Assembly: GCA_963815455.1 (NCBI GenBank)
Contig: CAWFGO010000003.1
Coordinates: 704,001 to 768,000 of the forward strand
Length of the DNA stretch: 64,000 nucleotides
Reading direction: 5' to 3'
Source of the DNA: an uncultured Verrucomicrobiae bacterium
Lineage (GTDB): Bacteria; Verrucomicrobiota; Verrucomicrobiia; Chthoniobacterales; UBA10450
The notes under the pieces were generated by a model. That model worked only from the letters and a program-made list of their open reading frames with translations, searched no databases and was not told where the DNA came from. Position numbers and translations under genes: made by a program. The stretch's first letter is position 1, and each line of letters begins with the position of its first letter. This document shows positions 14,230-46,594 of this stretch, piece by piece.

Positions 14230-14260
14230 AACGCACGAGCCATGAGAAAGATTTTTGACA

Positions 14261-16514
14261 ATGCCAAGCAAGACGACCAGCAAGACCCGGAAACCGGCTG
14301 CGCACAAGCTCGCCACCGCGAGTCCGTCCCGTGGCGGACCGGCGAAGTCGGCCGTCACGCGCAAACCGGCCGCGTCAAAAGCAAAAGCAGCGCCTAAGAA
14401 AACCGAGCCGGAAAAGAAAACGGTTCGCGCTCACGTCGCCGTGCCCGCGAAAACGGAGCGGGAGGCCGCGCCGAAGCCTCATTCGAGACCTGCGCCGGCG
14501 AAAACCGCGCCATCTGTTTCGCTGATCGACAAAGCGCCCGGTCAAAAGGACGGCAAGGATGGACCGGTGAAAACAAAGACCACGGTGCTGCCGCCGATTT
14601 CGAAAATACTCCCGACACTCGGACCTGCGACTGCCGCGAAAATCGAACCACCCGCCGCGCCCAAGCCCGAACCGGTGGAGGCAAAACCGGCTGTGGTAGC
14701 GGGCGATGGCGCCGTCGCAACCGAAGAGGAAGCTCCGCAAAATGTCATTCACATCAAGCCGCCAATCATCGTTAAAGAATTGGCGGCGCAGCTTGGCATA
14801 AAACCGCACCAACTCATTGCCGAGCTAATGGGGTTCAACATTTTCGCGAATATCAATCAAACGATCGAACCCGATATCGCTTCGAAGATCGCGGAGACTC
14901 ACGGTTTCGTTCTGGAAAAGGAGCGGCGGGAAAAAGGAGGCGGCGTTCACAAAGTCGAGCAAGCCGTGGTCGCGCCGCCGCCGCCGGTCATTAAGAAAGC
15001 TGAGGAACTCAAGCCGCGGGGTCCAATCATCACGTTCATGGGACATGTCGATCACGGCAAGACGTCGCTGATGGATGCGATTCGCAAAACGCGGGTTGCG
15101 GCGGGTGAAGCCGGCGGAATCACCCAGCACATCGGCGCCTACAGCCTCGAATACAAGGGCCACAAAATTACGTTTATCGATACGCCCGGCCACGCCGCGT
15201 TCACCGCGATGCGCGCACGAGGCGCAGATGTCACCGACATTGTGGTTCTGGTTATCGCGGCCGATGACGGGATCATGCCGCAAACCATCGAAGCAATTAA
15301 TCACGCCAAAGCCGCGCCGCATGTGAAGATCATGGTTGCGCTTAACAAAATCGATTTGCCGGGCGCGAACATCGACAAGGTAAAAAAACAACTTCAGGAG
15401 AACGGGCTCTCGCCGGAAGATTGGGGCGGCGAAACAATCGTGGCTCCAGTGTCGGCCACGCGAGGCACCGGGATCGATCACCTGCTGGAAATGATGGCGT
15501 TGCAAGCCGAAGTGATGGAACTGAAGGCGTCGCCGACGGCCACGCCGCGCGGCACCGTCATCGAAGCGCAAGTCGAGGCCGGGCGCGGCCCCACCGCCAC
15601 TGTCATCGTGCAAATGGGCACGTTACAAATCGGCGACCCGTTTATTTGCGGCGACTACAGCGGGAAAGTGAAATCGCTTCTCGACGATGAGGGAAAGCCG
15701 GTGAAGGAAGCGGGACCTTCGACGGCGGTAAAAGTGCTCGGCTTCACCGGTCTGCCCAACGCGGGCGACGAACTTTTGGTGATGGAATCCGAGCGCGCGG
15801 CCAAAACATTGAGCGACGAGCGGACTCGAGGCGAAACGCGCTAACAAGTTAAGCGCGCCGCAGCGTGCCACACTGGAGAGCCTGCTCGAAGCCGCTGACG
15901 GCAAGAAAGTTTTGCGAATTGTTTTGAAGTGCGACGCCCAGGGCTCGCTCGAAGCGCTGGTCGGCGCGCTGCGGCAGATCGAAAGCAAGAAGATCGATCT
16001 CGAAATCATTCATTCCGCAGTCGGGCCCATTTCGGAGTCGGACATTTTGCTGGCCAGCGCGTCGAACGCAGTCGTCGTCGGTTTCAATGTCAAAGTCGAG
16101 GCGATGGCGGTTTCGGCCGCGAAACGGGAAGGCGTGCAGGTCAAGCTTTACAGCATTATTTACGAATTGATCGATCAGATCAAAGAAGCGATGGCCGGCA
16201 TGCTCGATCCCGAGCATCGCGAAACTGTCATTGGTCACGCCGAGGTAAAACAAGTTTTCGAGTTGAGCAAGGGAATCGTTGCCGGTTGCCTGGTCACCGA
16301 CGGCCGGATCGCCCGCACCGCGCGCGCCCGGGTTCTGCGGAAACGCCAGCCGGTTTACGACGGCGGCCTCTCGACTCTGCGCCGTTTCCAGGACGACGTG
16401 AAAGAAGTGCGCTCCGGCCTGGAATGCGGCATCAAGCTCGGCGATTTCAGCGAATATCAGGTTGGCGACATGATCGAGTGTTACCAACTCGAGCAGATCG
16501 CGCAGAAATTGTGA
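14261..16514 (+). CDS. infB: translation initiation factor IF-2, frameshift near 15830
   Basis: [32 protein letters not shown]-terminal part continues in ORF 15912-16514 ending [13 protein letters not shown]. Confidence 0.95.
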
Positions 16515-20337: not shown

Positions 20338-20982
20338 TCAAAAGAGATGCAGCCCTTGTTTCGATCTCTTTCGATTGTTTGGCCGCATCGAGGGAGGAAG
20401 ACTGCAATATGTTATTAGAAGATTTCCGAGCTCTAGGAGAGCGGCGGTTTTTTTCCCAACTTGCTTGGGCAACTCGGCTCCCGATTCCCGGCCGGTCGGG
20501 TCGATAACATAGAACTGCGCGCGCATACCTTCGAACATTATCTCGTCGGAATTCGCTTCGGGCCGCGCATCGCCTATCATTGCTGACCAAGTCTTCTCGA
20601 TTGCACGCGCTGCCGCAGCAGGCAACGAAGCTTCACACTTTTGAACTTTGATATGAGTCGGCACCTTCTTGTCCCGGGCAAAGGGCCAGAGCATTTGGGG
20701 TGGCTCGGCAATGGTCACGCAAAACTGGTTCCGCTTTGAATCGCACCGATGCACTGAGATGACTCTTTCGACACCCCAATAACCAGGTATTTGCACCATT
20801 CGTGCAATTTCGCCTCGCGCTACAAACAATTTACGTCGCACCAGCTTGTCATAACTTGTATCAATGCCGAAGGCAGAGCTGAATGGGACGAGATGATCGT
20901 CTGGGGTCATGCCGGGGCAGCAACTTGCGGCCGCGAAAATTAGACTGCCCACGATGCTCGAAACTAAATATTTCCTCGCCAT
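20338..20982 (-). CDS. secreted/lipoprotein hypothetical, putative orphan immunity protein
   Basis: Signal or lipobox-like N-terminus; resembles the gene at 24711-25347; lies in the Rhs tail. Confidence 0.6.
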   Translation of the reverse strand: MARKYLVSSIVGSLIFAAASCCPGMTPDDHLVPFSSAFGIDTSYDKLVRRKLFVARGEIARMVQIPGYWGVERVISVHRCDSKRNQFCVTIAEPPQMLWPFARDKKVPTHIKVQKCEASLPAAAARAIEKTWSAMIGDARPEANSDEIMFEGMRAQFYVIDPTGRESGAELPKQVGKKTAALLELGNLLITYCSLPPSMRPNNRKRSKQGLHLF

Positions 20983-21653: not shown

Positions 21654-22880
21654 GGGGGAAAGGAAAGGGGAAAGGGGAAAGGGGGTCAGAAAGGGGGTCA
21701 GAAAGGGGGTCATGTCTTTATTCTTGTCGGGGAAAGGGGAAAGGGGGTCAGAAAGGGGAAAGGGGGTCATGTCTTTATTCTTGTCGTGCTCGGGCTTCGA
21801 TCTCTTTCAGATGCTTGGAAAGTTGCGCTTGGTTAGCCAGGTCATCAATCCGGCTGCACAGCCGACTGACATGGCTGTCGTTTCCCATTGCCAACTGCTC
21901 TCCTATCCAGCGTAGTGAAACCCCGGTCCGGTTCTTGATTAAGTGACCAATCGCGCGCTTGCGCCAATCGCTCTTTTTAAGTTTGGGCAGGTCTCTCTTC
22001 TCCAGGTTCCACTGCTTCAACCCAGCTCTGAGTAAACGCTCAGCGCTCCATGCCCCGTGATCGCCCCAAGTCTCCACCGGCCCCGATTTTCGCAGCCCGG
22101 CATCGCTCAATCGATCCATTAGCCTCAGCGCCCGATCTCGAAATTGCTCGCCGCCCAAAATCCAGCCCCGCCGCAATTCACCCGGCAATGGACCGAGGCT
22201 GCGGCCCGGCGGGTTTTCTTTGGCGCGCTCTTGCAGCCGCTTTACGTATTGTCGCCGGTGGGAGCCGCGATCACTCCAGCCCAGCTCACCTAAGACCGTT
22301 TTCACTTCCAACCAATTCGGCCGGTTACGAGCCCCCGGCCCGTACCAGTTGAAACTGCTCCAGCGATAGCTGCTTAAAGGTCTCTTGCTCGTCAAATGCG
22401 CCCGGGCCGGATTGAGATGAATGTAGTCCGACACCGTTGCCAGGTAGCCCCGCTCTTCGGGATCGATCAGCAGCGATTTATAACGTCCGGCAAAGAGATG
22501 TCCGCTCAAACGATGCCGGCGATTGTAGCGGGCCGTGTAGGTGGCTTGAAACCAATGCATCCCACGCACCAGATTGGCTTTCGGGGTCTCTACCAGCAGG
22601 TGGTAATGATTGCTCATCAAGACATAGGCGTGCACTCGCCAGCCAGTGCGCTGACAAATCTCGCCCAGTGTAGCCAGGAACATTTCCCGATCCCTGTCAT
22701 CGAGGAAGATCGCTTCCCGCCGATCGCCCCGGCAAAGCAGGTGATAAAGCGCCCCCTCAAATTCTATCCGCGGCATTCTGGCCATCGAACAACCATTAGC
22801 TGATTATCCCACAATGACAAGAATAAAGACATGACCCCTATTTTACTTATTTTACTATTTGACCCCTATTTTACTATTTC
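21654..22880 (-). mobile_element. Y1/RAYT-type HUH transposase element with terminal inverted repeats
   Basis: 23-bp GGGGTCATGTCTTTATTCTTGTC at 21706-21728 and 21763-21785, exact reverse complement at 22816-22838; tandem GGGGTCAG and TATTTTAC stutters outside. Confidence 0.8.
21775..22785 (-). CDS. REP-associated-type tyrosine (Y1 HUH) transposase with C-terminal HTH
   Basis: MARMPRI..YHLLCRG..IF, AYVLMSNHYHLL (HUH), GHLFAGRYKS, YIHLNP (catalytic Tyr); C-terminal SLRWIGEQL..SHVSR HTH. Confidence 0.9.
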   Translation of the reverse strand: MARMPRIEFEGALYHLLCRGDRREAIFLDDRDREMFLATLGEICQRTGWRVHAYVLMSNHYHLLVETPKANLVRGMHWFQATYTARYNRRHRLSGHLFAGRYKSLLIDPEERGYLATVSDYIHLNPARAHLTSKRPLSSYRWSSFNWYGPGARNRPNWLEVKTVLGELGWSDRGSHRRQYVKRLQERAKENPPGRSLGPLPGELRRGWILGGEQFRDRALRLMDRLSDAGLRKSGPVETWGDHGAWSAERLLRAGLKQWNLEKRDLPKLKKSDWRKRAIGHLIKNRTGVSLRWIGEQLAMGNDSHVSRLCSRIDDLANQAQLSKHLKEIEARARQE

Positions 22881-22885
22881 GAGCT

Positions 22886-23302
22886 TCACCGAGATCTAGA
22901 CCGCGCACGAACAGCATCGGGTCTTCGCTCATGAAGCGGCCGATAGTCGGATGATAGGCACGGGCGCGATATTCGTGAGAACCCGAACTGTGGCGCATAC
23001 TCGCGGCCGGTGAAGAGGAAGCGATTATTAATCAGTGACGAGGGATGAGTGATGTGGGACGAGTCGTAAATTGTGGGCGTTCCAAATGCGTCATACCGAT
23101 ATGATTCGAGGATTGTTCCATCGCCGCCAGTGACCACGATCACGCTGCCCTCGTGGTCCTGCATCGGGTATTGGCCAGACCCGTTGTTGCTCCGGGCGAT
23201 GATCTCATCGATCCCGCGCCCGTACACATTGGTCGAGGGCGTGCCGCCGCTGGGATCGAACTCGTAGATCGGACGTTCCCCGTCGTAGATGTAATAGGTC
23301 AA
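22886..23302 (-). pseudogene. orphan Rhs core fragment, cut off before its toxin tip at the transposase element end
   Basis: YYIYDGERP..YGRGIDEI..QDHEGSV..YRYDAFG..RFLFTGREY; ends next to the repeats at ~22880. Confidence 0.75.
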
Positions 23303-23341
23303 GAGGTGATGACTGACACAATTTGAATTAGCTTTTCGCCC

Positions 23342-23668
23342 TCATTCGTCAGTTCTCCATTTCGACCGACTTATTCTGTGAGTATCGATAAAACCATCTA
23401 TCTTGCCTGAACAACGGTTCACGTGCACGCTGTAAACGGGGATTGCCTCACGCCGGTGCGGATCATTATACGACACTGCATACAAGGGAACCTTCGGCCC
23501 GGATTCAGGAACGAAAGTATCTTTGATGACTCGAATCGTGTAGTCCCGCGGCAGGGTGATTTTTCGTCGATTGATCTCGGCATTGGCTATGCCAATTACC
23601 TGTTCGTTGCTCAGGTACGTGCAGCAGCCAGAGAGAAAAAACGCGCACATCAGAAGCAGTGGTTTCAT
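23342..23668 (-). CDS. small lipoprotein, putative immunity to the upstream peptidase toxin
   Basis: Lipobox FLSGC; TGATG-type coupling with the toxin stop at 23668. Confidence 0.65.
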   Translation of the reverse strand: MKPLLLMCAFFLSGCCTYLSNEQVIGIANAEINRRKITLPRDYTIRVIKDTFVPESGPKVPLYAVSYNDPHRREAIPVYSVHVNRCSGKIDGFIDTHRISRSKWRTDE

Positions 23669-24687
23669 CAGTGTCCAGCGTCCCAGCGATTGATGGGAAC
23701 ACCCTTGTAAGATTTGCGATCCTCTAGCTTTAAACCTCGCCTCACAGGATTTTCATTATCGCGCACATTATGACCTCGGTATTCATTTTCGTCTCTTCCT
23801 CCCGCAAAGTGGCCAACCTCGTGAAACACGGTTGTCGCACGCCCTTTGACTCCATCGGGCGGCAATTCTGTCGGATGGTGGTTAAAATCTGCTCGGCTCT
23901 TTGGATCAAGAAAAGCGGGGTCATGGGGATCAAGCCGGAGAATTTTTTCCTTAGGATAGAATCCGGTCGGATGTGTCTTGTCGGTGGCCGCAACTCTCAA
24001 ATCTCCTGGCATATTAGCTAATTCGTTGCCTCGTTTGCTCGTCGACGAACCAAGTTTTATCGCTTCATTAAACTTCGCTTGCGCGGCTGCGCCAAACGAT
24101 TCATCAAAGAAAAATTCAATCAGCCCTAATGGATCAAATCTATCAAGCGGATCGTTAGAGCAGTATCGAAACAGGTTTAGCTCGCCTTGATCAGGAGACT
24201 TCCAGAATGACCATTCCTCTTTCGATTTGCCGCCTTCGGGAGCCTTGGCGTCGGACGAATCTGCGACCGGCTTATCGAGGCCGATCCGCCGCACAAACAG
24301 ATTCGGATCTTCGCTCATGAAGCGGCCAATCGTCGGATGATAAGCCCTCGCGCGGGACCCGTAGAAGCCGAACTGCGGCGTGTACTCGCGGCCAGTGAAG
24401 AGGAAGCGATTGTTGATCGCAGTGGTTGATAGTTGATTGTTCGACGGATCGCGAATGGTCGGCGCGCCGAAGGCGTCGTAGCGGTACCATTCCAGGATAG
24501 AGCCGTCGCCGCCGGTGACCACGATCACGCTGCCTTCATGGTCCTGCATGAAATACTGACCCGAGCCGTTATTGCTGCGATAGAGAATCTCATCGATCCC
24601 GCGCCCGTAAACATTGATCGAAGGCGTGCCGCCGTTCGGATCAAACTCGTAGATCGGCCGTTCCCCGTCGTAGATGTAATAGATCAC
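23668..24687 (-). CDS. orphan Rhs-core plus toxin cassette, HEXXH zinc metallopeptidase (M91-like) tip
   Basis: Rhs core ending NDPLDRFDPLGL; tip contains FHEVGH and ENPVRRGLKLEDRKSY; GTG at 24687. Confidence 0.75.
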   Translation of the reverse strand: MIYYIYDGERPIYEFDPNGGTPSINVYGRGIDEILYRSNNGSGQYFMQDHEGSVIVVTGGDGSILEWYRYDAFGAPTIRDPSNNQLSTTAINNRFLFTGREYTPQFGFYGSRARAYHPTIGRFMSEDPNLFVRRIGLDKPVADSSDAKAPEGGKSKEEWSFWKSPDQGELNLFRYCSNDPLDRFDPLGLIEFFFDESFGAAAQAKFNEAIKLGSSTSKRGNELANMPGDLRVAATDKTHPTGFYPKEKILRLDPHDPAFLDPKSRADFNHHPTELPPDGVKGRATTVFHEVGHFAGGRDENEYRGHNVRDNENPVRRGLKLEDRKSYKGVPINRWDAGH

Positions 24688-24710
24688 CGAACTGGCGCCG
24701 GTGGTTCGCT

Positions 24711-25347
24711 TCACGCACCGGCCCTGATCGCGAAATCTTCTAGCCAGCGCATGAGCTTTTTCCGCTTCTCGGGTCTTTCGGCCTCCGGAGTCTGGCAATA
24801 ATCTGCAAGCGCAAATCCCAAATCTGTAAACTCTTTCGGCAATCCTTTTGTTGGACTCCATATTTGACCGTAAACGCCACCCAAGCCGGTAATCCAAACG
24901 GAAAATTCAACATTCCAGCCATCTCCGCCCTAACTTATTTTGTGGATACCGCGTCTTGAGAAGCATACTTGCCCAAGCGCGCTGAACCGCCACTGCAAAA
25001 TCTGCGTCGATAGGGACGTTAACCTGGCTTTCAGAAATAGGACCGCGCTTGCCACGAGATATCTTAATAAGCGTGATGAAATTGTCTATCGACCGCTCGT
25101 GATCATAGTTCTTGTAACCTTTTCCCCAGACCGAAACCGCGAGATCACCGACTGCCGAACCGTTGCAAATCATATGACCCTTGCCCCATTTATTTCCCAG
25201 TAGTCTCTGCACGGCTGCTTCATATTCACGTCCGTCCGGCGACACTGGAATGAGATATCTCGGTTCCGTCTGATGTTTTTTCAATTGTATCGGTTCCACC
25301 GCAATCACCGATGACGTGAAGAAAACAAGAATGAAAAATCGCTTCAT
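24711..25347 (-). CDS. putative cognate immunity protein of the main Rhs, frameshift near 24935
   Basis: Signal peptide MKRFFILVFF; shifted frame continues GGDGWNVEFSVW...DLGFALADYCQTPEAERP...RAGA* with stop at 24711. Confidence 0.65.
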
Positions 25348-25368: not shown

Positions 25369-28300
25369 TTACTTTCGTTGTAGGCCCGGCAGCTTAACAG
25401 CCGGTCTTTTCTCGACTTCTTCCCACTTTCCATTCTTTAACCTTTCGGTGACTGAATCCGCGTGATGATCACGCTGTCGCGCGTCATCAGACTGTCGATA
25501 GCGCTCCGTAATTTTTCCATCTTTTGAAGTCGTGTAAACTGTGGTGTTGGATTTATCCCCATTGTTCTTGTCTGGGGGGCTTGTCAGCGTGCCCCTCGGG
25601 TCCGGTCGCCCTTGTGGGTCGGTTGTGTTGCTATTGGTGTGAACGTGGGCAAATGAGTCCCTCTTGCCGTTTTCGCCGCCGGGAGGATCCGGATACAATA
25701 TCCTTTGGTGAGTCATGTCCCCGTTAACGGGCTCACCGACGCTCGTATCCTTCGAATATTGAATGCGACCATTAAGCGGCCCGATCGTCTTGCCGCGCTC
25801 CAAGCCAACGCCTTTTCCGTCGCTATTATTATTGCTAATATCTCGGACGACTTTGAGGGCTTCGAGTGAAACACGATCCACTTCTGGACTCACCACAGTT
25901 GGAGCCAGCCCCATGGGATCGCTAAGGTCCCACGGATCGTTTTTGACGTACCGATAGAGATTGTAATCGTCCGCATCGAAGAGTTTAGGGTCCTCAGACA
26001 TGAACCGCCCGATGCCGGGATGATAGGCGCGGGCGCGGTATTCATAGAAGCCGAAGAGTGGAATGTATTCCCTGCCGGTGAAGAGAAAGCGATTATTGAT
26101 CTGTGTCGTCGGGAATGAAGTTCCGGCACCGTCCTTGATCGACATCGGCGCGCCGAAGGCATCGTAGCGGTACCATTCCAAGAGCGCGCCGTTGCCCCCC
26201 AGAACGGCAATCACACTTCCCTCGTGGTCCTGCATGAAATGCTGACCCGAGCCGTGATTGCTGCGATAGAGAATTTCATCGATACCGCGCCCGTAAATAT
26301 TCGTCGAAGGTGTGCCGCCGTTTGGATCGAACTCATAGATTGGTTTCTCGCCATCATAAATGTAATACGTGACCGACATTCCCGGCCCATCTCCCCAGGT
26401 GCGCCGCACCAACCGGCCCAGTGCATCGTAGCCCAGCCGGTAGAGATGCAGCCCGCTGGCGTCGGTCATCGACACGCGCGCCAGCCGCGTGTCGTTTAGA
26501 TAAACGTAATTCACACCCTGATAAGCGCTGATCTCGTGATTCGCCCCGTTCTGGATCGACGTGTCCCCGTGAGCGATCGTGTATTGATTCAGGCCATTCG
26601 GCTCGTAATTGAACGGCTCGCCGTCTGCCGTCACGCCCGCTTCGCCGGTCCGATTGCCCGCTTTATCGAGCGCGTAATTCAGACTGCGCCTGGTTGCGGA
26701 CTGCGGCGCTTGGCCACCGCCTTCATTGCTGTACGTTTCCTCAGCAATCGTCGAATCAGCCATGCCGGTTTTGTAAGCAATCGCTCGCACCGTCTTCTCT
26801 CCATTCAGCGGCACTCCCACATTGAAACTCCCACCGGATGAAATCAACATCCCATTGGTGCTGCTGGGAATAGTTCCGTTGGTCGTATAACGGATCGACG
26901 CGCCAGCGGTCGAACAGGTGACGGTGACCGATTGCGAAACCCCGTAGAGATTACACCCCGGGGGATTGAGCACCGGAGTGGCTACTTGATTTCCCGGTGG
27001 CGGCGTGGGCGTGGCGCTCGGCGTTGGCGTCGGGCTCGATACCGGCAACGCGTATTCCGCGCGCTGGAGTTCGCCATCGAGATAATAGCCAAACCAATCG
27101 ATCGCCGCCGTGTCTTCATCGCGGTTAACCGAACTCAGCCGGTTCATCATATCGTAACCGTACACTTCGCGCGTAAACCAATTCCGCGTCGTAGGGGTGC
27201 CGTAGGGCATCGGCATCGCGCTGGGAAGGTTGACTTTCAGCGCCCCGATGCGATTCAGCGCATCCGGCTCGTAGTCGATCCAAGTCCCGTTTGCGAAACT
27301 GTCGCGCCTGGTAACATTTGAGGCTTCATCGTACCCGTATTGATATGAAGGACTCTGGCCACCCGTCGGCAAGATCGTCTTGAGCCGGCCCAAACTGTCG
27401 TAAGTCTGGGTGTAATCGTATCCGACTCCGGGAACCCAAAGATGCCTTACTCGGCCGTCATTATCGTGTTCGTAAGACACGGCTTGCGTTGTGCTTGGAG
27501 GCGGGGAAGCAATGCCTGTTCCTGCGTTCACCGTTGCCACTTTGTTGTCGGCATTATCAATATCTCCAGTGACATTTGCATCGCACCGGAAGTTGCTTGA
27601 GCTAACGGGCTGACCGATCTGCGACTGAATCATGCTGGCATCGCTCGAAGTAACCGAGCCGGTGGCGTTCGCGTCGCCCCATAAAACTCGCATCGGAATT
27701 GCGATCTCGTCAGAAATTCCACCATCACTGACCGAGAGCATCACGACAAGCTTCTGCGCCGTGCTTACGTTCACCAGATCGATAGTGATGGCCGTTCCGC
27801 CCGTTTCTGTAGACGCAGATGTGGTGGCGCTAACAGTGCCGATTCCGGCCGATACGATGGCATTACCGTTGAGGTTCACCAGGTGCTGGAAAGTAGCGAC
27901 GATCTTATAAGTCCCGCCGTTTCGGCTTTCAATTCCCGGGTCTCCCGTTAGTGGCAACGCAATGTCAAAATCACCTGCGCTCCCGTGCGTCCGCCGAGAG
28001 ACGACACTCGGTCGGTCAATCAACGGAACCGGAGTGGGCGCGGCACCGGGCATCGTCTGCTGATCCAGCGTCATCCGTCCGGCATCGTCGTAGCCCCGCA
28101 CGACAGTTGAGTATGGATTCTGAGCAAAAGTCAGCCGCCCGGCCCAATCGTAATCAAAATCGCTGAAATCAATTCCGTTGCTCCAGCGCATCGCGGTCTT
28201 CCGGTTGCGCGAGTCGTAGGCGAACGTCTGGATCGCGCCGCCGGGCGCGCGCCGGGCGATCAGGTTCTTATTGCCATCGTAGGTCCAGGTCTGGGTATCG

Positions 28301-31110
28301 CGGGTTCCTCCCGGTAGAGGCGGTGGATAGGTCATCGTTTCCTTTAACCCTGACGGCTCGTAGGTGAAGTCTGTCTCATTTCCATTCCCGTCTCTGACCT
28401 TCGAGAGCAGGCTCGCGCCGTGAACGCCAGCGGAATGATAGAAAAACTGGGTGATCACATAATCGCTGTCCGGCCCTTCCCCGAGCATCGGCACTTTGTC
28501 CATGGTGATTCGATTCAGCCCATCATAAGTCTTGAACGCGGTGGTGCCGTCCGGGCGAATGATGCGGGTTAGATTCAGCCCGTCCTCATAAAAAAACTGC
28601 GTCCGGTGATTGAGCGGCTCACGGACTTCCGTTTTTCGGTTTCGACTGTCGTAATCCGTTTCGGTCACCCAATGCGAGGGACGTGGATCGATCACTCTGG
28701 TCTGATTGCCAACGGCATCGTAAGCGAAGCTGGTTATCGAAGTGTCGGACCCACTGCCGACAGTTGTGGACAATTTACGGAAGTCGCCATCGTAGTTGTT
28801 TGTAGTGATAATGCTCTGCTCCTTCGCGACGTGCTGGCGGACAGAGTTGGTTGTGTGCGAGTACGAATTATTCTGGCTGGTCGGATCGCCGGTCGTCGGC
28901 TTGTAATCGAACGTTTCGAAATGCCCGAGCGGGTCTGTGATTTTGGTCACCCGGCCATAATCGTCATACTCATATCTCGTTCGCTGGCGTAGCTCATTTT
29001 CCTCCCAAATTTTATCCCCGTAAATATTGAACCCGAACGATTGATATCTGCCGTCGGGATGGGTGATCTTGGTCACCAGCCCGCGCCCGGGGCAAGGCTG
29101 ACCAGTATTTGGCCCTTCCACCGCAATGTCGTACTCATACGTCGTCGTGTTCTGGCGCGGATCGGTTTCCGTCTTGACCCTGTCGATCCACGCATTGCCG
29201 GCAATCGGATCATTCGGCTCGTAATAGCTGTAGGTCGTTTTCGGCTCCGACTCGACCGGCGCTGAACTCCAAGTCGGGTTCCATTTCTTGATTAGCAGGC
29301 CGCGCGAATCGTATTGATAATGCACATAAGCGCCGTTCTTCATCCGGTGCCAACTGACTTGGCCGTGGCCGTTCCCGTCGTCGTAACCGACTTCCTCATA
29401 AGCTAGCAACGTGCTGCCATTAGCCGCCGAATCCTTGTAGTCGGTGCGTGTTATTCGGTGCAGGCCGTCACGCGTGTGCTCTGTTACGCTGCCGCGTTCA
29501 TCGGTGACACGATGCACATAGTGCGGATCGCTTTCGTAATCGTAGTGAATCGTCTTCCCATCGGGATGAATGATGTCGGTGATTTCACCGATCCCCTCGG
29601 TCGCATTGGGTCCCCACGCATGACGCATATAGCGTGTGGTGTAGAGGGGATCACCAAGCCCGCTGCTAGTGCGAGCATCGGTAACGCGATTCACGAAGTT
29701 TTGAGAGTCGTAATCCAGGTAAGTCGTGTGCCCCTCGAAATCCTCGTACGATAACAAGAGCTGTGGGTCGTCGCAGCCGCCGCAGGGCTCGTCTGGCGCG
29801 CAAGGTGGCAGCCGAGTGTACTGAAATGTTCGGGTCAGACTTACCCGCGTTGTCTCCTCCCGAGAGTCCCAGTTCCCGGCAACGCTGGAGATGATGGTAT
29901 TTCCGTCAAAGGTTTCCTCCCGTTTTATCACTCCATGTGGAACACTCGAGACCACTCCATTATGTGGATTCCTGATCGTTCCGCTCTGATACCCGTACTG
30001 GATTCGTCGCATGGCCCCGCCTTGATGCCGCATGTCGTCGGCAGTCTTAAGAAGTGGCCATTCTCTTGGATTTGCTTGGCCGTTGACCCACTCCGCGATG
30101 TTGTCTTCCCGATAAGTGTAGATAGCCGACGTGCCATCGCTGTAATGCACTTCGCTTAGCATCATCTTTTCGCGGCATCCGAAAATGCATCCCCCGCCTG
30201 GATAGATCGGGCAATACTGATAGGTAACATTGTCGATTCGGTTCCCGCGGCCATCAAAAGCCTCCACTTTGATGAGCAAGCGTGGATTCCAATAATCAGT
30301 GCTCCATGGGTTATCGACGTACGTAAATAGCAGAAACCGGCCCCCGGGTTCAGTGACTTTCCAAACTTTGCCATAGTTATCATAGTCGATTGTTGTGGTT
30401 TTTCCGAAAGGATCGGCAATAGCAACTGCACGATGACTGGCCGAATCAAAAATGACTGTCCCACCGTCGGCCATGCGAAAATGAGTAGCGTCCTCCCACT
30501 TTTCTGAAGTCCCTCGATCCCAGCCGCACGTGCCGAGCTCGGCACCGCTGGGCATGAAAACAATACCTGAAAAGTCTGGCCGAGGCGCTTCGCCAAGCCA
30601 CATGTACTCATGAGTCCAACCTGGACAGATGCGAGGCGACCCGTCCTCGGGCGTGGTTCGGCTGTTCCAGTAGCGAGTCATTTTAAGAGGATATGCGCCG
30701 ATGCAGCCCGGCACGACAATGTCGTCGATCACGCGCTTGGCATTCCTGGAAAGAGGGTCGTAATTCCCCCCAGTGGTGATCTGCCCGTTGAAAATTCCGG
30801 CCACACCGGTGGGACTGTTCTGGCCAAAAGCAAGTTGGGGCGACCCTCCATCAGCAGGCGCTTCTTCCATGGGACCCTCCGGCTCCTCGGGTGCTTCTGT
30901 GCAGTTAGTCGCTACGACCTCTTCTTGCGCAAACATCCGCGGCGCAGGCATTGCAACCACGAGCGACCCAACCAGTGCGCTCAGCCAGAGCACTCGGGCA
31001 AGATTTTTCGTGCTGAAGTTAACACTCGCCGCGGCGAGCCCGATGCGGAGGCTTCGCGATATTGGAATCACGGAAGTGCATCTTAAGGCAACGGATAACA
31101 GATATGGCAA
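25369..31110 (-). CDS. Rhs/YD-repeat polymorphic toxin with internal dockerin-like and CHB_HEX_C/FN3-associated domains and a JAB-like (DUF4329-like) tip
   Basis: Many YD repeats; FTGREY..YRARAYHPGIGRFMSEDP..NDPWDLSDPMGL; tip E...AHVHTN...SPPD; hydrophobic N-terminal signal; start uncertain. Confidence 0.9.
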   Translation of the reverse strand: MPYLLSVALRCTSVIPISRSLRIGLAAASVNFSTKNLARVLWLSALVGSLVVAMPAPRMFAQEEVVATNCTEAPEEPEGPMEEAPADGGSPQLAFGQNSPTGVAGIFNGQITTGGNYDPLSRNAKRVIDDIVVPGCIGAYPLKMTRYWNSRTTPEDGSPRICPGWTHEYMWLGEAPRPDFSGIVFMPSGAELGTCGWDRGTSEKWEDATHFRMADGGTVIFDSASHRAVAIADPFGKTTTIDYDNYGKVWKVTEPGGRFLLFTYVDNPWSTDYWNPRLLIKVEAFDGRGNRIDNVTYQYCPIYPGGGCIFGCREKMMLSEVHYSDGTSAIYTYREDNIAEWVNGQANPREWPLLKTADDMRHQGGAMRRIQYGYQSGTIRNPHNGVVSSVPHGVIKREETFDGNTIISSVAGNWDSREETTRVSLTRTFQYTRLPPCAPDEPCGGCDDPQLLLSYEDFEGHTTYLDYDSQNFVNRVTDARTSSGLGDPLYTTRYMRHAWGPNATEGIGEITDIIHPDGKTIHYDYESDPHYVHRVTDERGSVTEHTRDGLHRITRTDYKDSAANGSTLLAYEEVGYDDGNGHGQVSWHRMKNGAYVHYQYDSRGLLIKKWNPTWSSAPVESEPKTTYSYYEPNDPIAGNAWIDRVKTETDPRQNTTTYEYDIAVEGPNTGQPCPGRGLVTKITHPDGRYQSFGFNIYGDKIWEENELRQRTRYEYDDYGRVTKITDPLGHFETFDYKPTTGDPTSQNNSYSHTTNSVRQHVAKEQSIITTNNYDGDFRKLSTTVGSGSDTSITSFAYDAVGNQTRVIDPRPSHWVTETDYDSRNRKTEVREPLNHRTQFFYEDGLNLTRIIRPDGTTAFKTYDGLNRITMDKVPMLGEGPDSDYVITQFFYHSAGVHGASLLSKVRDGNGNETDFTYEPSGLKETMTYPPPLPGGTRDTQTWTYDGNKNLIARRAPGGAIQTFAYDSRNRKTAMRWSNGIDFSDFDYDWAGRLTFAQNPYSTVVRGYDDAGRMTLDQQTMPGAAPTPVPLIDRPSVVSRRTHGSAGDFDIALPLTGDPGIESRNGGTYKIVATFQHLVNLNGNAIVSAGIGTVSATTSASTETGGTAITIDLVNVSTAQKLVVMLSVSDGGISDEIAIPMRVLWGDANATGSVTSSDASMIQSQIGQPVSSSNFRCDANVTGDIDNADNKVATVNAGTGIASPPPSTTQAVSYEHDNDGRVRHLWVPGVGYDYTQTYDSLGRLKTILPTGGQSPSYQYGYDEASNVTRRDSFANGTWIDYEPDALNRIGALKVNLPSAMPMPYGTPTTRNWFTREVYGYDMMNRLSSVNRDEDTAAIDWFGYYLDGELQRAEYALPVSSPTPTPSATPTPPPGNQVATPVLNPPGCNLYGVSQSVTVTCSTAGASIRYTTNGTIPSSTNGMLISSGGSFNVGVPLNGEKTVRAIAYKTGMADSTIAEETYSNEGGGQAPQSATRRSLNYALDKAGNRTGEAGVTADGEPFNYEPNGLNQYTIAHGDTSIQNGANHEISAYQGVNYVYLNDTRLARVSMTDASGLHLYRLGYDALGRLVRRTWGDGPGMSVTYYIYDGEKPIYEFDPNGGTPSTNIYGRGIDEILYRSNHGSGQHFMQDHEGSVIAVLGGNGALLEWYRYDAFGAPMSIKDGAGTSFPTTQINNRFLFTGREYIPLFGFYEYRARAYHPGIGRFMSEDPKLFDADDYNLYRYVKNDPWDLSDPMGLAPTVVSPEVDRVSLEALKVVRDISNNNSDGKGVGLERGKTIGPLNGRIQYSKDTSVGEPVNGDMTHQRILYPDPPGGENGKRDSFAHVHTNSNTTDPQGRPDPRGTLTSPPDKNNGDKSNTTVYTTSKDGKITERYRQSDDARQRDHHADSVTERLKNGKWEEVEKRPAVKLPGLQRK

Positions 31111-39718: not shown

Positions 39719-42308
39719 TTACGGCAAAGCCGTGCCGAGGTTGGACTTGATCAGTGAAACGTCTGTGCCGTTGATGGCGCCGTTGGCATTCACGTCCGAG
39801 CGGAAGTTAGTCCCATCAACCCCCTGCGCCGAGTCGCCCTTTGGTCTGCGAAACGTCCGCCGAGCTCACCGCTCCATTACCGTTGCTGTCGCCCACGAGA
39901 GCTCCCATCGAAATCATAACGCTACCGAGATTGACTCCATCGCTCACGTTGGATAGCGCGATGCCAAGTCTCTGTGCGTTCGCCACGCCCGTAAGATTGA
40001 GGGTGACTACGTTACCAACCACGGAGGAGCTGCCGATACTCCCCGCTGTCACCGAAGCCGATCCCACCGTGACGGGATTAGCAAAAGTAACCACGACCTG
40101 GTGCGCCCCCGCGCTGTTGCGGTCCTCAACTCCCACTGCGCCGGTGAGCGCCACCTGAGGCAAACCGACATCGAACGTGCCCGCCCCACCGTGAGTCTTT
40201 CGCGACACCGCGGAACTTACGGTCGGCGCGCTGCCGCCGCAGACTGGATTTGCGATTGAGATGTCATCGATCATCACGCCCACGGCAGCGACGCTGTTGT
40301 CGGAGGCCATGCGCCACCGCAATTGCACGTTCATTCCGTTGGCGGCAGGAGGCATGTTGATCACGCTCGTGACGTACCCTCCGGAGTTGCCGTTCCACGC
40401 ATTTCGCCCGGCGATCGGGCTACCAAAAGCGGTGGAGATCGGTCCGGTATATCCTCCACTGACGAAGGTTCCACCCGCCGTGATGATGTCAGCGAAGGCG
40501 CCGCCGGCGATGCTAATCTCCAGCACCTCGCCGTCGAATGTCGACTCCGTGTTGTAGCTATGCTTGAACGTCAGCGTCGCTCCTCCAGCCGGCACGGCAA
40601 AGACTGGCGAGTCCAAATACATGTCTCCGATATTGCTCGGATCGGGAGCAAACGCCTCGTTTGGCGCGCTGTTCGGCGTGGTCGTCGAGGTCACCCATAG
40701 AACTCCGGCAATGTTTGAAGGGCCGAGCGATGTCGTCCATCCAGCCGGCAACGCCGGAGCCACCACCCCATCAAAGTTTTCCGCGAAAGCAGTAGCGGAA
40801 CTGCCGGTGACGAATGTATAGTTGAGATTACCGTAGTCGGTTGCCCCGTCCATCATATGCACCGTGGCGGTCACGGTGCTGCCGCAGGGCAGGGCCGGAT
40901 CGACCGTGAAGGTGAAGCTGCGAAACACTGCCGGGCTACCCGAGCAAACCGCTCCGTAGTTCTGAGGCCCGGACGGCATCGTTACGCCGCCGGTTGCCTG
41001 CAGGGTGCCGGTCAGTGCCGACGTACAGACTACGCCCGGTCCTCCAACGTTCAGCGCACCGAACGAGACAGAGACGCTTTCATTTGGATCGAGGACTCCA
41101 TTGGGGCCCGCCGAGTCAATGGCTTTACCACCATTGCTGATAATATTTGTCGGCGTGTTAAGGCAGAGCAATTTCTGATTGTCGGTCGTGCCTTGAAAGG
41201 CATCGCAAACTCCCACCGACGTGCAGCGTCCACCCACGACGTAGAAACTACTGCCCAACACCGCACCAGTCATACGGGATCGCGCCGCCAACATATTAGG
41301 CAGCATTTGCCAGGTATCGGTCGCCAGGTCATAAGAAATGGCCGTATTGGAAATATTTGCCGTGACACTTCCGTTGACATAGCCGCCGGCCAGGACGGCG
41401 TCTTGATAAAGAGCCGTGGCTGCGCCCCACCGGGTCTGGGGCAGGTCGGCAATGGCCGCGTCGCTCCAGGTATTTGTCGCCGGATCGTAACGATAAGTCT
41501 TCAAGGAGGCGGCTGATCCTACGCTTTGAATACCACCGGCGGAATAAATAAAGCCTCCCTGGGTCCAGCCGCTGGTGAAACTAATCAAAATCGGATAGGC
41601 CGCGCCGCTAGACCAGGTATTGGACCCGACGTCATAAATTTCCAACGCTTGGGCCGAAGCGGTTGAGGGACCGGTGCCGCACCACTTATAGATCTTCCCG
41701 CTCAGATAAACCGCCGAATGGTTCCACGTCCCCACGCTAAATGGAGCCAGCGTCGAATAGGTATTTGACGCGACGTTATATCGCCACAACGTCGTTTGAG
41801 GTGTGCCCGTGCCGGTTAACGCGCCACCCAGAATGTAGCAATCGATTCCGTCGGTCACTGCGGCCGGAAACTCGACGGCCGCCGGTAACGGAGCGATCGG
41901 CGTCCACGTCGTGCCATCAAATTTGAAGGAAGCCGCGGAAATCGCGCCGCCTTGAACGCCACCGAAGAGGTACATATTGCCGCCTACCGTCACCGTCGGG
42001 GCGTCGAGCAACAGAGCCGGCGCCGCTGTTGCGCTGCTCCAGGTGCAATTAAAAAGCGTATCTCCGCCGGCGGATTCCGGGGCTCCCCCCGCAACTTTGC
42101 CAGTCGAAACGGGAGAAACTGGTTGTGCGTTAATGCCTCCTTTTTGAGCTTCGTGTAAGCTGGCAGCGGGCGACACGCTGAGAGCATTCATCTCCTTGGG
42201 TTTCTCGGCGCGCGGTTGCGCCAGCCCAGGCATGGCGTGGAAAAGATAAACGGGCAGAACTATGGAAAGGACAGCCCCCCAAACAAACAGTGTTTTGTGC
42301 TTAGTCAT
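39719..42308 (-). CDS. secreted Kelch-repeat protein with C-terminal SRKTHG/dockerin-like module (frameshift near 39825)
   Basis: Signal peptide; Kelch repeats (MYLFGG, YILGG, YDPATNTW); shifted frame ends NFRSDVNANGAINGTDVSLIKSNLGTALP*. Confidence 0.8.
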
Positions 42309-42600
42309 ATTGATTCTCCTGTGGTTATTGTCTGAGATTGCCGAATGCGCCGGCCTGCACCCGCTGAGGCGCCTTCTCTCCCAAAGAGCCCGCAAAAAGA
42401 AAATGCGTGCATGCAATCTGTTATTGTCACGAATTGTCACGAGGCTATTTGGACTAACCGCCGCGTGTCAATCCTTTTTGTGTGACAAACCGATCGCGGG
42501 AAGAGGCGAAACGCTATCCAAACTACGGGGCGCTTCTTCGGGCTAAACTGCGATTCTAGATCGCACGTTCCGCCAGCAAAAGATCGCGTACCCCGCTGCC

Positions 42601-45600
42601 CTAAGGCAATGCCGTCCCGATATTTGCTTTTACCTGCGCGGTATCCGTGGCGTTGATCGTGCCGTTAGCATTGACGTCGGAACGGAAATTCGTTCCATCG
42701 ATCAATTGACCGATCCGGGATTTGACCTGCGAAACGTCGGCTGAATTTACCGAACCGTTTCCGTTGGAGTCGCCGATCAGCACGCTCATCGGAATCACCA
42801 CATTGCCGGAACCGTTCACGCCAAAGAGCGTAACATTGATTGTTTGGGCATTCGTGACACTGGTGAGCGGCACGGTCACGGTATTTCCGCTGACGGTGAC
42901 CATTCCGCCATTGCCAACACCTCCGCTTCCAATATTGCCGCTGCCAGAGGTGACCTGGGCCTGCGGACTCCCGGTCACACTGACCGAACCAGCGAAAGTA
43001 GCGACGATCTGATAATCGCCAGTTGCACCGCCGTTACGACACTCAATTCCCGGTGTGCCAGACAAGGGAAGATTGACATCGAAATCCCCGGCCGCTCCGT
43101 GAGTTTTGCGCGACACAACGCCGGTTGGCACTGTCACTTGGATCGGACCGGAAGGCAACGGCCAGGCGAAAGCGCCACGCCCGCGGGTCCAGAGCGAAAG
43201 CGCGGTCGAGCCGCGATCGATTTGCATGTCCCAGATCATCACGTTGGGCACACCGTTGTTGAAGCGATACCACGCGGGTGACGCCACCGTGACATCGTCG
43301 GTGTAGTAAAGCCCGAAGTCCGTGCCCGCGAAAACCTGCTGCGGAAAGTTCGGATTCACGATGATCGAATCGACGGGAATATTCGGCAGGTTGCCGGATT
43401 TATCCTGCCAGGTGGACGAAGCGCAGTTGGCGTCGCAGACAACCCGGAAAACGTGGCCCGGGGTCGAAGGCGTGTTCTCGTTGAAGCCGCCTACTGCCGC
43501 ATAGCCGATTGGAGTATTCGCAGCCGCCACCGAAGGATCGAGCGCGATGTTGAGGACGGGGCGGTTGGGCAGGATGGCATTCCCAGCCGTCACGTTTACC
43601 CAGTTGGCTTGGCTCGCAACGCCCGTGCCCAGGTTAAACCCGATCCAGGCATTCCCATCGTTGGTGCCGAGCATCGCCACGCTTTGGTACTTCGGCGAAT
43701 ACTTGATCTGATTGATAAACGAACGGTTCCCAAGCGTCTGCTTGGTCATGTTCTGAGTCGTTGGAGTGTTGGTAACGACCCATGTGTTGGTAGCCGTAGC
43801 GCCGGTGATCGTTTCCCACACTCTGGTTGTTCCGGCAATGAGGTGGCCACAACCCGTCGTCGCACCGGCAGGGCCGCAATCATCGCCGCCTGGAATGCCA
43901 CCGTGAAAAAGGTCCCACGGCAAAATGAAAGACTGGGTGTCACCGGTCCACGAACCTCTTCTGCTGGTCCAAGAAGCGCCGGATGCGGTGCAGTTGCTGG
44001 TGCATCGGCTCAGACCGCCGCTGTTATTGCCTTCCCAAAAGCGCAGACTCGTTCCTGTTCCCACCGGATCGATCCGGGCAAAGAATCCATCGCCGCCCAG
44101 ACCCTCCTGCCACTGCACCGGTCCGGTTGGGCTGCCCGAAAATGAAACTGAGCTGGGGCCGTTATCCTGGGCGCCGCCGACGGCTTGCGGATTAGCCGAT
44201 GTGGCGAAGTTGCCGCTGATGTCTCCGGAATAAAACTCAATCGTGTTTATTCCGTTATCCATGTTGACCCACGTGTTCCTGGTAACTCCGATAACCGCCG
44301 CGTCGGCATTACTGCTTGAAAAAACGCCGCCGTCGCTGCCCTTCAGCAGGATGCTCGACGAGCCGGACACAAACGCGAGCGCGTGCTGGTCAACGTGGAC
44401 GACATTGCCACCGCTATAGCCGCAGGTCAGATCGTAGAAGGCAACGCCGGTGCGGCTGGCCAGCCACACGTCGAAAGTATCGACAAATATTCGATCCGGA
44501 TTGTTCGGATCGACAGCGATTCCCTGGTCGTACCAATTCTGCGGGTAATCACCTGCCCCGCCTGAGCAATTCAGGAGCGAGCCCCCGGCCGAGCCGGTCA
44601 TGAAGCCCCAGGTGGTGCCGCCGTCTGTGGTAGCCCAGACACCAAGCTGGCAACCGTTGGCGCTCCCGCAACCGCTGTCACTGTTAGGGGCAATGGAAGC
44701 CACCTGCGCGTAGATGTAATTTGGATTGCTCGGCGCCACGGCGATGTCGATCCGGCCAAGTTGGGTGCCAGTGCTGGTGCTGACATACGGCGCGCCGCTT
44801 CCCGCGTTCATGTTTGCCCCCGTTGCGTAGGGGCTGCCGCTGGCCATGAGTCCGAACACAAATCCATTGTCATTGCGGCTAATCAAAGTGAAATCGGAGG
44901 GACAACCGCTGGCGGGCACGGTGCCTTTGTAAAGACCGTTCGCTCCGTTCTGATCGAGACCGATCTGCACCGTTGTGGCAAACCCGCGGACACCGACCGC
45001 CGCGACGATGCGTGTCACTCCCCCACCCATGTTGGTCAACTCGAGGCCGGTAATGTCCTGTCGCTGCGTGCTGAAATTATTTGTCGTGCAGGGCCCGGTC
45101 CAGTTATTGCCACCATCGTAGGAAAAATAGAGCCCGGTCTTTGTCCCGGCGACCACTCTGTTGCTGTTGTTCGGATCGACACGCACTTTGCCGACCGCCT
45201 GATATTGCGGGAAGGTCCCCGGCGGCAACGAGAACGATGGACCGAAAACGGTGGCGCCCTGCACAATCCAGGTTGCGCCGCCGTCCGTGGATTTTAATAT
45301 GCCCTGGGAGCCGAACGAAAACGATCCGTAGTTCAAATCGCCCGTGCCAGCGTAGATTGTGTTGTGGTCGTTCGGATCGATCACGATGGTATCGACCGAC
45401 GTGGTGCTGATCAGTGCGTCGTCGGTGAGCACAGTCCAACTGGTATTAACGTTGCAACAGTTCGTCGTTTTCCAAACGCCGCCGCCGTCCGTAGCAATGT
45501 AGGCAACGATTGAGCCATTGGTCGTCGTGGTTGGGTCGACCGCGATAGCGTTCACGCGCCCCTCGGTTTTTCCGTAATCAAAACAGCCACTACAGCCGGT

Positions 45601-45999
45601 CATCCGTTCAGGCTGAGGCCCTAGCGCGGTGAAGGCATTAACATCGAGTTGAAGCGGCGCGTTTTTACCTCGCCTAAGGTTCGCCGCCCTTACCCCAAGC
45701 GGAATTCGCCGCTCAATGCGAGCGTCCTGGGTCGCCGCGCGACGAATCCACTCAGGATTGAAAACGCCGGTCGGATAGGTCACGCGGTTGTGCCATTCCG
45801 CTTCCATGCGATCCAGGTCGTCCACTCTGCCATCCGGGACTGGCATATAGCGCAGGCGCTGATCAACCGGACCAGTTTGGCGTAATGACAGTCCGCCAAA
45901 ACTCAAAATTGCCAGGAGGATGCCGGCCGAACCGACGGCAAGACCGAGCACAAAGCGTAGATTTACGAACGCTGTTCTAGGGACGGATTTCTTCTTCAT
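42601..45999 (-). CDS. secreted BNR/Asp-box beta-propeller protein with dockerin-like C-terminal module
   Basis: KSTDGGATW, SYDGGNNW, TTDGGTTW, HVDQHA, GGAQDNG, GGDG; terminal paired DxNxNG loops. Confidence 0.82.
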   Translation of the reverse strand: MKKKSVPRTAFVNLRFVLGLAVGSAGILLAILSFGGLSLRQTGPVDQRLRYMPVPDGRVDDLDRMEAEWHNRVTYPTGVFNPEWIRRAATQDARIERRIPLGVRAANLRRGKNAPLQLDVNAFTALGPQPERMTGCSGCFDYGKTEGRVNAIAVDPTTTTNGSIVAYIATDGGGVWKTTNCCNVNTSWTVLTDDALISTTSVDTIVIDPNDHNTIYAGTGDLNYGSFSFGSQGILKSTDGGATWIVQGATVFGPSFSLPPGTFPQYQAVGKVRVDPNNSNRVVAGTKTGLYFSYDGGNNWTGPCTTNNFSTQRQDITGLELTNMGGGVTRIVAAVGVRGFATTVQIGLDQNGANGLYKGTVPASGCPSDFTLISRNDNGFVFGLMASGSPYATGANMNAGSGAPYVSTSTGTQLGRIDIAVAPSNPNYIYAQVASIAPNSDSGCGSANGCQLGVWATTDGGTTWGFMTGSAGGSLLNCSGGAGDYPQNWYDQGIAVDPNNPDRIFVDTFDVWLASRTGVAFYDLTCGYSGGNVVHVDQHALAFVSGSSSILLKGSDGGVFSSSNADAAVIGVTRNTWVNMDNGINTIEFYSGDISGNFATSANPQAVGGAQDNGPSSVSFSGSPTGPVQWQEGLGGDGFFARIDPVGTGTSLRFWEGNNSGGLSRCTSNCTASGASWTSRRGSWTGDTQSFILPWDLFHGGIPGGDDCGPAGATTGCGHLIAGTTRVWETITGATATNTWVVTNTPTTQNMTKQTLGNRSFINQIKYSPKYQSVAMLGTNDGNAWIGFNLGTGVASQANWVNVTAGNAILPNRPVLNIALDPSVAAANTPIGYAAVGGFNENTPSTPGHVFRVVCDANCASSTWQDKSGNLPNIPVDSIIVNPNFPQQVFAGTDFGLYYTDDVTVASPAWYRFNNGVPNVMIWDMQIDRGSTALSLWTRGRGAFAWPLPSGPIQVTVPTGVVSRKTHGAAGDFDVNLPLSGTPGIECRNGGATGDYQIVATFAGSVSVTGSPQAQVTSGSGNIGSGGVGNGGMVTVSGNTVTVPLTSVTNAQTINVTLFGVNGSGNVVIPMSVLIGDSNGNGSVNSADVSQVKSRIGQLIDGTNFRSDVNANGTINATDTAQVKANIGTALP

Positions 46000-46208
46000 T
46001 GTGGTGATTGAGTTGTGGCGGCGAGAGATTTTTGCCGGCGCAAATGCTATGGCAAACGACCAGTGAATGTCACGCATTTAGTGAACCAAATGCGGTATCA
46101 ACAAGCCGCGGTCGCGACAGACATCCGGGCATTCGAAAGCCAGATTCGCATTCGTCTGCGTTTCTCGCGCAGACTGGGCATTTCTGGTCCCACGAATCCC
46201 AACGATCC

Positions 46209-46445
46209 TCAGGATTTGATCAGTTTATAATCCTCGATCACCGGGTTCGACAATAAATCGCGGCAAAGATCGTGCAGCCGTTTTTCAAGATCGACATCGT
46301 CCCCCTCGGCCTCGATTTCCATGTATTTGCCGATCCGGACGCTGCGTACTTCGGGCATTCCCAAATGCCGCATCGCATCGCGCACCGCATTCCCCTGCGG
46401 ATCGAGCACTGCAGCTTTCGGCATCACGACCACTTTTGCTTTCAT
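46209..46445 (-). CDS. purS: phosphoribosylformylglycinamidine synthase subunit PurS
   Basis: MKAKVVVMPK..VLDPQG..VRIGKY..LLSNPVIEDY. Confidence 0.93.
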   Translation of the reverse strand: MKAKVVVMPKAAVLDPQGNAVRDAMRHLGMPEVRSVRIGKYMEIEAEGDDVDLEKRLHDLCRDLLSNPVIEDYKLIKS

Positions 46446-46533
46446 TGCTTCACCATATTTGCCGCTTACGGCATGAACAAGCGCAATTCCAGAACCATAA
46501 CACCGTTGATTGTTCAGGGTCGCAATGCGCAAA

Positions 46534-46562: not shown

Positions 46563-46594
46563 CGCAGTTTCGCAAGGGAAATGTGCGCTGTTTT

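Follow-up and report, generated by a model that had tools for sequence, protein, structure and literature searches.

The gene at positions 25369-31110 (minus strand) of a 64,000-nucleotide stretch of DNA from an uncultured Verrucomicrobiae bacterium (contig CAWFGO010000003.1; hereafter the window, from a genome, G000, that is 90% complete) encodes a full-length Rhs/YD polymorphic toxin-type protein of 1913 residues (P0001), in which an Ig-like domain and, behind it, a two-repeat dockerin are inserted between the repeats of the YD shell. This architecture, an Rhs cage with an embedded dockerin plug, is real and recurs among homologues, and it is joined to what is probably a plug-and-socket display system, the candidate socket being a predicted cohesin with a PEP-CTERM tail. 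The reading that we favor, with a probability of about 0.58, is that the insert evolved for self-docking of the exported cage on this PEP-CTERM-anchored partner; our confidence is lower for the window copy than for its family.

The reading frame of the Rhs gene is single and intact, and its start is uncertain: it is placed here at a TTG codon (31110), and the database gene call is 13 residues shorter. The protein has three hallmarks of an Rhs polymorphic toxin, namely a β-shell of YD repeats (PF05593 and TIGR01643, matched in Pfam and NCBIfam), an Rhs core (TIGR03696 at residues 1649-1735, over the cut-off) with two DP motifs, and a variable tip accompanied by small genes and orphan cassettes. 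A predicted Sec signal peptide (residues 1-61 from the TTG; 30928-31110, this and the following segments all on the minus strand) is followed, about 30 residues further on, by the conserved region that starts near residue 92 and comprises the N-terminal plug and the first part of the shell (residues 92-1022; 28045-30837). Further shell lies between the two inserts (residues 1210-1356; 27043-27483), and the last shell strands adjoin the core (25906-26691), in which D1707 and D1731 (DPMGL) form a predicted autoprotease; passages of an earlier structural study read such paired DP motifs as the Rhs autoprotease (PMC8636562).

The N-terminal region defines the secretion mode of Rhs proteins, according to the same passages (PMC8636562). 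As the original prediction had it, no PAAR, VgrG or WXG family was matched in this protein by Pfam or NCBIfam, and a canonical N-terminal trafficking domain, looked for in the same two collections, gave no match. In place of the PAAR/VgrG-binding region typical of type VI secretion system (T6SS) Rhs proteins, the start resembles a signal peptide, with a hydrophobic stretch starting near residue 43 (Kyte-Doolittle 11-residue maximum 2.33) that terminates at RMFA/QEE, so that the hydrophobic N-terminus proposed earlier, ending MFA/QEE, agrees with the hydropathy analysis, subject to the uncertain start codon. A hydrophobic window of at least 2.0 is found in 47 of the 51 homologue N-termini matched by an anchor pattern, independently of the inserts, and many homologues unmatched by the pattern have a similar signal-peptide-like N-terminus by eye. 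Since the signal peptide is family-wide and insert-independent, Sec export was not brought by the module. Just before the shell, homologues share a conserved D-[D/H]-N-P-x-G motif, which reads QNSPTG in the window copy (region of residues 97-100) and resembles the N-terminal D/P autocleavage site of Rhs1 as given in parts of PMC8636562.

The YD repeats had been predicted to be interrupted twice through Pro/Thr linkers, first by a dockerin-like module and then by a domain resembling CHB_HEX_C_1/FN3-associated domains, and both interruptions are confirmed, with the flanking linkers and with profile matches to the domains named. Insert 1 (187 residues, 18.8 kDa; residues 1023-1209; 27484-28044, minus strand) stands in place of a hairpin turn of 3-7 residues and consists of a Pro-rich linker, the Ig-like domain, the dockerin and a second linker, the module proper spanning residues 1035-1198 (28008-27517). 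Its dockerin part (residues 1145-1198; 27517-27678, minus strand) contains two Ca-loop/helix repeats with Q and T, respectively, at position 17, and matches Dockerin_1 weakly at residues 1145-1188 (E 0.003, below the Pfam cut-off). A profile built from 41 copies of the module in G000 matches Clostridium thermocellum dockerins (2ccl_B, E 9e-9) and the CipA X-dockerin (E 7e-4), and thus has the two Ca-loop/helix repeats of solved dockerins; two main helices are present in the structural model. Insert 2 (117 residues, 11.6 kDa; residues 1357-1473; 26692-27042, minus strand) is formed by a Pro/Thr linker and a domain (residues 1389-1460) that matches both CHB_HEX_C_1 (E 1e-10) and Fn3_assoc (E 2e-9).

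A homologue search with residues 900-1750 returned 515 proteins, and the 120 best of these were examined; a duplicate of the window copy and two non-Rhs proteins were dropped to leave 118. Database names place the homologues, like those of the candidate partner described below, in the Chthoniobacterales/Verrucomicrobiota. Among these 118 best matches, site 1 is binary, holding either a turn of 3-7 residues (92 proteins) or an Ig+dockerin module of 180-194 residues (26 proteins), and in all 26 the filling is this module alone and never a fragment of it. Site 2, by contrast, is a hypervariable loop of 0-437 residues, for which a pattern-based count over 117 proteins (one shortened protein being left out) gives about 50 Fn3_assoc-type, 39 other and 28 short fillings; these shares, and those at site 1, are enriched for inserts because the query contained both. 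Other fillings of site 2 include FN3, paired Ig and three Fn3_assoc domains, and in one clade (a subset of P0081-P0121) the loop carries acidic Asp/Glu/Pro-rich stretches of 50-100 residues with no folded domain. All combinations of site-1 and site-2 fillings occur. A FastTree phylogeny of shell-only columns requires at least four gains or losses of insert 1 and at least 13 changes of the Fn3 filling, and one protein bearing insert 1 is nested among close empty relatives, for which recombination is also a possible cause. Insert 2 is by this comparison no second fixed handle, the domain being one filling of a variable loop and likely an exchangeable accessory or spacer.

The same survey bears on whether the architecture could be a chimera of the assembly. 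Frameshifts do occur elsewhere in the assembly: infB, at 14255-16514 of the window, is split into two frames, which indicates that the assembly has indels. However, a further 25 database proteins and a further 8 genomes have the same insert junctions (301 genomes of the family were searched, 9 of which have an Rhs protein with site 1 filled), and the G+C content is even over shell and inserts (0.55-0.59). The window protein is therefore no artifact of assembly, both of its inserts are natural, and the chimera explanation can be practically dismissed.

In an AlphaFold2 model of residues 565-1740 (38 sequences; mean pLDDT 81, pTM 0.69), each insert is predicted to form a domain of its own between two successive strands of the shell, joined by low-confidence linkers. 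The modeled shell matches the shells of Rhs proteins, teneurin-like proteins (TLPs) and teneurins (Foldseek E 3e-39, with a low TM of 0.3 for a partial shell), in agreement with the sequence profile. The model thus bears out the earlier proposal as far as separate domains are concerned; that they would project outward follows instead from a comparison of sizes, since the two inserts and the tip together amount to approximately 50 kDa and the cavity of the solved Rhs1 holds <25 kDa according to passages of PMC8636562, the window shell being somewhat longer than that of Rhs1.

The module itself is a common C-terminal domain of this organism. G000 contains 45 full copies, 42 of which are C-terminal (41 within 30 residues of the end of the open reading frame and one frameshifted), and the other three lie in the window Rhs, in a second Rhs and at the N-terminus of one protein. 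In an unindexed search the module was C-terminal in 106 of 145 further representatives, and it marks up to ~70 proteins per genome, its cargoes including subtilases, BNR and kelch propellers, a phosphodiesterase and the Rhs cages; cellulase families were absent from the 24 module proteins scanned. Five large module-ending proteins are encoded in the window itself (39816-53690, minus strand, and 60014-61825, plus strand), the former region holding a kelch protein with a shortened module and then three consecutive large proteins. H, G, E, R and Q residues are invariant in the Ig part, whose motifs are retained in 25-26 of the 26 site-1 inserts. A normally C-terminal module has hence been moved into the cage, as first proposed, and its occurrence at the C-terminus, at the N-terminus and at three positions of the Rhs shell, together with the dockerin match and a predicted cohesin partner, upholds the idea of a position-independent docking-type domain rather than a C-terminal sorting signal.

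The second and third shell positions were found in other Rhs proteins. The second Rhs of G000, which belongs to another subfamily (G000:C1:591614-596535, L051, in two frames), carries the module inside the Rhs core, and this core site is filled in 26 of the 120 matches listed and in the genomes G183, G253, G022 and G132. In G183 it is filled three times, once in a short core-tip cassette; in the core inserts, repeat 1 is worn and repeat 2 has codes of the host type. The third site is a hairpin just ahead of a 'YxYDGW' strand late in the shell (P0387, P0400, P0402). Internal copies are also seen in non-Rhs proteins of a genome from another family (G162; L179, L183, L187 and L190), where the repeats depart from the host code.

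A candidate partner for the module is a 160-residue domain, here called X, that was first seen in the G000 protein with the N-terminal module copy. G000 has three X-PEP-CTERM genes (one frameshifted) and two X+module fusions, and each of these proteins has one X domain, which distinguishes them from a multi-cohesin scaffoldin. The fusions are secreted and adaptor-like, one with the order X-module (G000:C3:75296-76450, L047) and the other module-X-InlB-2x Fn3_assoc (G000:C1:1028689-1030635, L048). The model of X (P0122, pLDDT 97) has the predicted fold of a cohesin: in a VIA comparison the top 17 rows all belong to cohesins or their complexes (best Z 13.8, with rmsd 2.3 over 136 residues), and Foldseek relates X to cohesins with E 7e-7. 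X was identified as cohesin-like by this comparison of folds only, as the X profile found no cohesin among PDB sequences, and in the Atlas, where its best score was 0.84 with cohesin clusters at 0.78-0.80, it was not identified. Judged by its model, X is a cohesin-fold protein outside PF00963. Exosortase processes PEP-CTERM tails so that the protein is anchored at the surface; P0122 matches PF07589, the exosortase family TIGR02602 exceeds its cut-off twice in G000, and a PEP-CTERM-like tail motif is present in 117 of the best 120 among 366 matches to the X family.

Module and X occur together. Within the order (151 genomes), the module is present in 23 genomes and X in 17, all 17 being among the 23, where X is counted if its match starts by model position 61 with E <=1.2e-10, a threshold chosen after viewing the table. 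The raw tally of 112/151 obtained with the A1 profile is inflated because that profile includes the PEP-CTERM tail, and borderline X matches appear in two module-negative genomes (G108 and G160). Within the family, X is found in 80 of the 301 genomes, all of them among the 188 matched by a module-plus-flank query (10 candidates scored per genome, E 1e-10; the 188 include Rhs-only matches, and these two tallies, alone among the results, take in unpublished genomes, G344 and others). The two are also adjacent: outside G000, a gene that ends in the module immediately precedes 16 of 21 X genes, one more X gene is at a contig start, and in G089, G163, G096 and G173 the module gene ahead of X is the sole module match in the genome. 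Eight of the nine genomes having a site-1 Rhs also have X. In two of the six X-negative genomes of the order, a divergent X-like PEP-CTERM gene stands behind a module gene and aligns to X over 169-181 columns; the alignments of two unrelated PEP-CTERM controls are confined to the tail, at 26-31 columns.

Positions 9-18 of the dockerin repeats are common within a genome and differ between genomes, in the manner of a recognition code. With host profiles built from the 2-8 best-scoring copies of each genome (35 for G000; 7 unparsed rows were dropped), leave-one-out assignment over 15 hosts was correct for 65 of 94 C-terminal copies. Eleven Rhs-borne dockerins have a host profile; for 6 of them their own host comes first with at least one of the repeats, and for 10 it is among the top three. 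The distinctive codes of G022 and G132 recur in the Rhs-borne repeats of those genomes. Self-docking therefore looks like the original use of the insert in the family.

Several observations weigh against this reading. The Rhs family evidently works without the module, as 92 of the 118 homologues do not have insert 1. X has no match to Pfam Cohesin PF00963 in G000 (the control was matched); it was undetected in 6 of the 23 module-positive genomes of the order and in 108 of the 188 of the family (10 candidates scored each), and no X gene was seen in the stretches examined around the site-1 Rhs genes. In G226, which is 95% complete, the only module is that of a site-1 Rhs, and X was not found. 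No Rhs-borne dockerin compared matches its host less well than the window one (ranks 5 and 15 of 15), which has Q17 and T17 where 34/35 and 35/35 parsed C-terminal copies of G000 have K, and K or R occupies position 17 of either repeat in only 9 of the 25 parsed site-1 inserts, some hosts using Q there. Matching of host codes could also result from gene conversion with host copies, and the comparisons draw on related, non-independent genomes, on small host profiles and on the X threshold mentioned above. As the window copy has lost the basic residue of position 17, the case for tethering is stronger for the family than for the window gene, whose dockerin may be decaying or retargeted, to judge from its residues; that it still binds its own cohesin is doubtful, with the odds somewhat against it.

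On a rival account the inserts would be passengers, abundant local domains recombined into permissive loops, with the dockerin a decaying relic or a partnerless spacer at least in the window lineage. The copies of the window and of its closest relatives (P0003 and P0022) have no K17 in either repeat, the insert of G226 is worn, site 2 tolerates nearly any filling, acidic low-complexity stretches among them, and the majority of homologues have an empty site 1. Against this, site 1 admits just the one module and at a narrow length, the motifs of the Ig part persist in nearly all of the inserts, the first and twelfth Asp of the Ca-loop are retained in the window copy, and unusual host codes recur in Rhs-borne repeats (G022, G132). 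We consider passengers an unlikely, though not far-fetched, account. Alternatively, a drifted plug could serve as an aiming device that binds the surface cohesin of related competitors and concentrates the released cage on kin species. The variation of codes between genomes, the frequency of X-like sockets in the family (80/301) and the Asp-retaining copies of the window, G002 and G226, which depart from or lack the host system, are compatible with this; on the other hand, most testable Rhs dockerins fit their own host best, and none of the other hosts tested gives a good fit to the window copy (best scores 1.8 and -6.1). Both aiming as the purpose of the insert and a turn of drifted copies from self toward the sockets of rival kin are improbable.

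As to the route of export, TssC and VgrG of the T6SS were not found in the 90% complete G000 (controls matched), and markers of the type IX secretion system had no match in G000 and none in the controls either. A GspD-like secretin gene adjoins a T2SSE ATPase gene. We propose that the Rhs protein would be exported by Sec with its tip encaged and would then cross the outer membrane, probably through type II secretion; the looped-out dockerin would clip the cage, in a Ca-dependent manner, to the PEP-CTERM-anchored predicted cohesin on the producer's own surface, displaying it beside dozens of other plugged proteins, and autocleavage would free the tip near neighboring cells. Because the Rhs tip is cut off and swapped, the plug cannot hold its usual C-terminal place, which would explain its capture in shell loops. 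The interpretation first put forward is supported in part; what does not hold is a link of Sec export to the module, and the window dockerin has lost its basic residue 17. The Ig+dockerin module might instead be a folded recognition signal for type II-like export or for binding of an adaptor, and not a lasting tether. The invariant Ig residues have no known role, a secretin and ATPase are at hand, and the X+module fusions could act as adaptors, but the module-less Rhs relatives, which are the majority, have the same signal peptides and the membrane-sorting tail of X suits anchoring, which makes this alternative scarcely probable.

Behind the core, the gene ends in a variable tip of 177 residues (25372-25902, minus strand) with a JAB-like pattern (E...HxH...S..D) that is a lead only; the tip scores 0.91 with the Toxin-JAB1 cluster of the Atlas and has no match in Pfam, and tips vary among the homologues inspected. 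A candidate immunity gene, as suggested by its position (24714-25347, minus strand), has a signal-peptide-like start and shifts frame near 24930. It is followed by orphan cassette 1 (23668-24897, minus strand), an Rhs core with a different tip containing HExxH and with 75% DNA identity to the pre-core region of the main gene, by its own positional candidate for immunity, with a lipoprotein-like start (23342-23668, minus strand), and by orphan cassette 2 (22858-23341, minus strand), a broken Rhs core that ends abruptly beside a gene resembling REP-associated tyrosine transposases (21775-22785, minus strand; PF01797, with NF047646 below the cut-off). Similar Y1/REP-type transposase genes stand behind both module-bearing Rhs loci (the window copy, for which Pfam was checked, and G000:C1:597243-598208). 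Signal-peptide-like or lipoprotein-like starts occur in the candidate immunity genes at 24714-25347, 23342-23668 and 20338-20982 and in those that follow other Rhs tips of G000, pointing to a protective role in the periplasm.

Compared with the T6SS Rhs proteins (Rhs1, RhsA, RhsP, Tse5 and Tse15; PDB 7pq5, 7q97, 8h8a, 8cp6 and 8uy4), the window protein likewise has a YD shell, a core with paired DP motifs, a variable tip, immunity-like genes and orphan cassettes, but has a predicted signal peptide in the place of PAAR or VgrG and folded domains within the shell repeats. Wall-binding repeats are located within the body of Bacillus WapA. This protein, which is named in the passages of PMC8636562, is grouped with the TLPs as a signal-peptide YD-shell toxin. 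The TLPs, as presented in parts of PMC13018210 (PDB 9ifo and 9pt5), are likewise YD-shell toxins with a predicted Sec signal peptide and predicted surface anchoring, and signal-peptide, surface-anchored YD toxins were thus already proposed there. Unlike the TLPs, which have N-terminal adhesion and anchor modules and, in 96%, a TIP domain, the window Rhs bears its anchor inside the shell, and no Pfam domains for N-terminal adhesion modules, TIP or the teneurin superfold were found in it.

The module and its candidate partner resemble cellulosomes, and especially the CipA X-module-dockerin and single-cohesin anchors (PDB 2b59, 3ul4, 4dh2 and 6kgc), in combining an Ig-like domain with a two-repeat dockerin, a cohesin-fold partner and genome-specific recognition residues; they differ in the diderm host, the PEP-CTERM/exosortase-type anchor, the single cohesins with no multi-cohesin scaffoldin seen, and the non-cellulase cargoes. 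A survey of cellulosomes mentions one PVC member in the passages concerned (PMC11557425). Cohesins and dockerins outside cellulolysis, in a PVC bacterium of the Planctomycetes, are the subject of the 'planctosome' hypothesis (PMC6461901), and PT-TG toxins with cohesin or dockerin domains provide another case of these domains in polymorphic toxin architectures (PMC13483458). Unlike both, as far as the relevant passages describe them, the present case involves a predicted PEP-CTERM cohesin and a dockerin inserted in an Rhs shell, and searches of the open-access literature found no publication on PEP-CTERM cohesins or on dockerins within Rhs shells.

The Rhs shell thus tolerates folded domains at several defined hairpins. 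That a PEP-CTERM cohesin and a species-coded X-dockerin serve this large Verrucomicrobiota family as a general surface-display rack, from which Rhs cages captured the plug independently in three shell loops, has in our estimation slightly less than an even chance. The hypothesis involves two proteins and is open to test with two small soluble domains. The reach and choice of targets by YD toxins that are free of an injection machine is called open for the TLPs in the sections of PMC13018210 concerned; if true, such a rack, with drifted copies that may have turned to the sockets of rival kin, would constitute a T6SS-independent route for the display of Rhs proteins and the choice of their targets, and would provide a candidate function for an unannotated PEP-CTERM family and for a widespread module.

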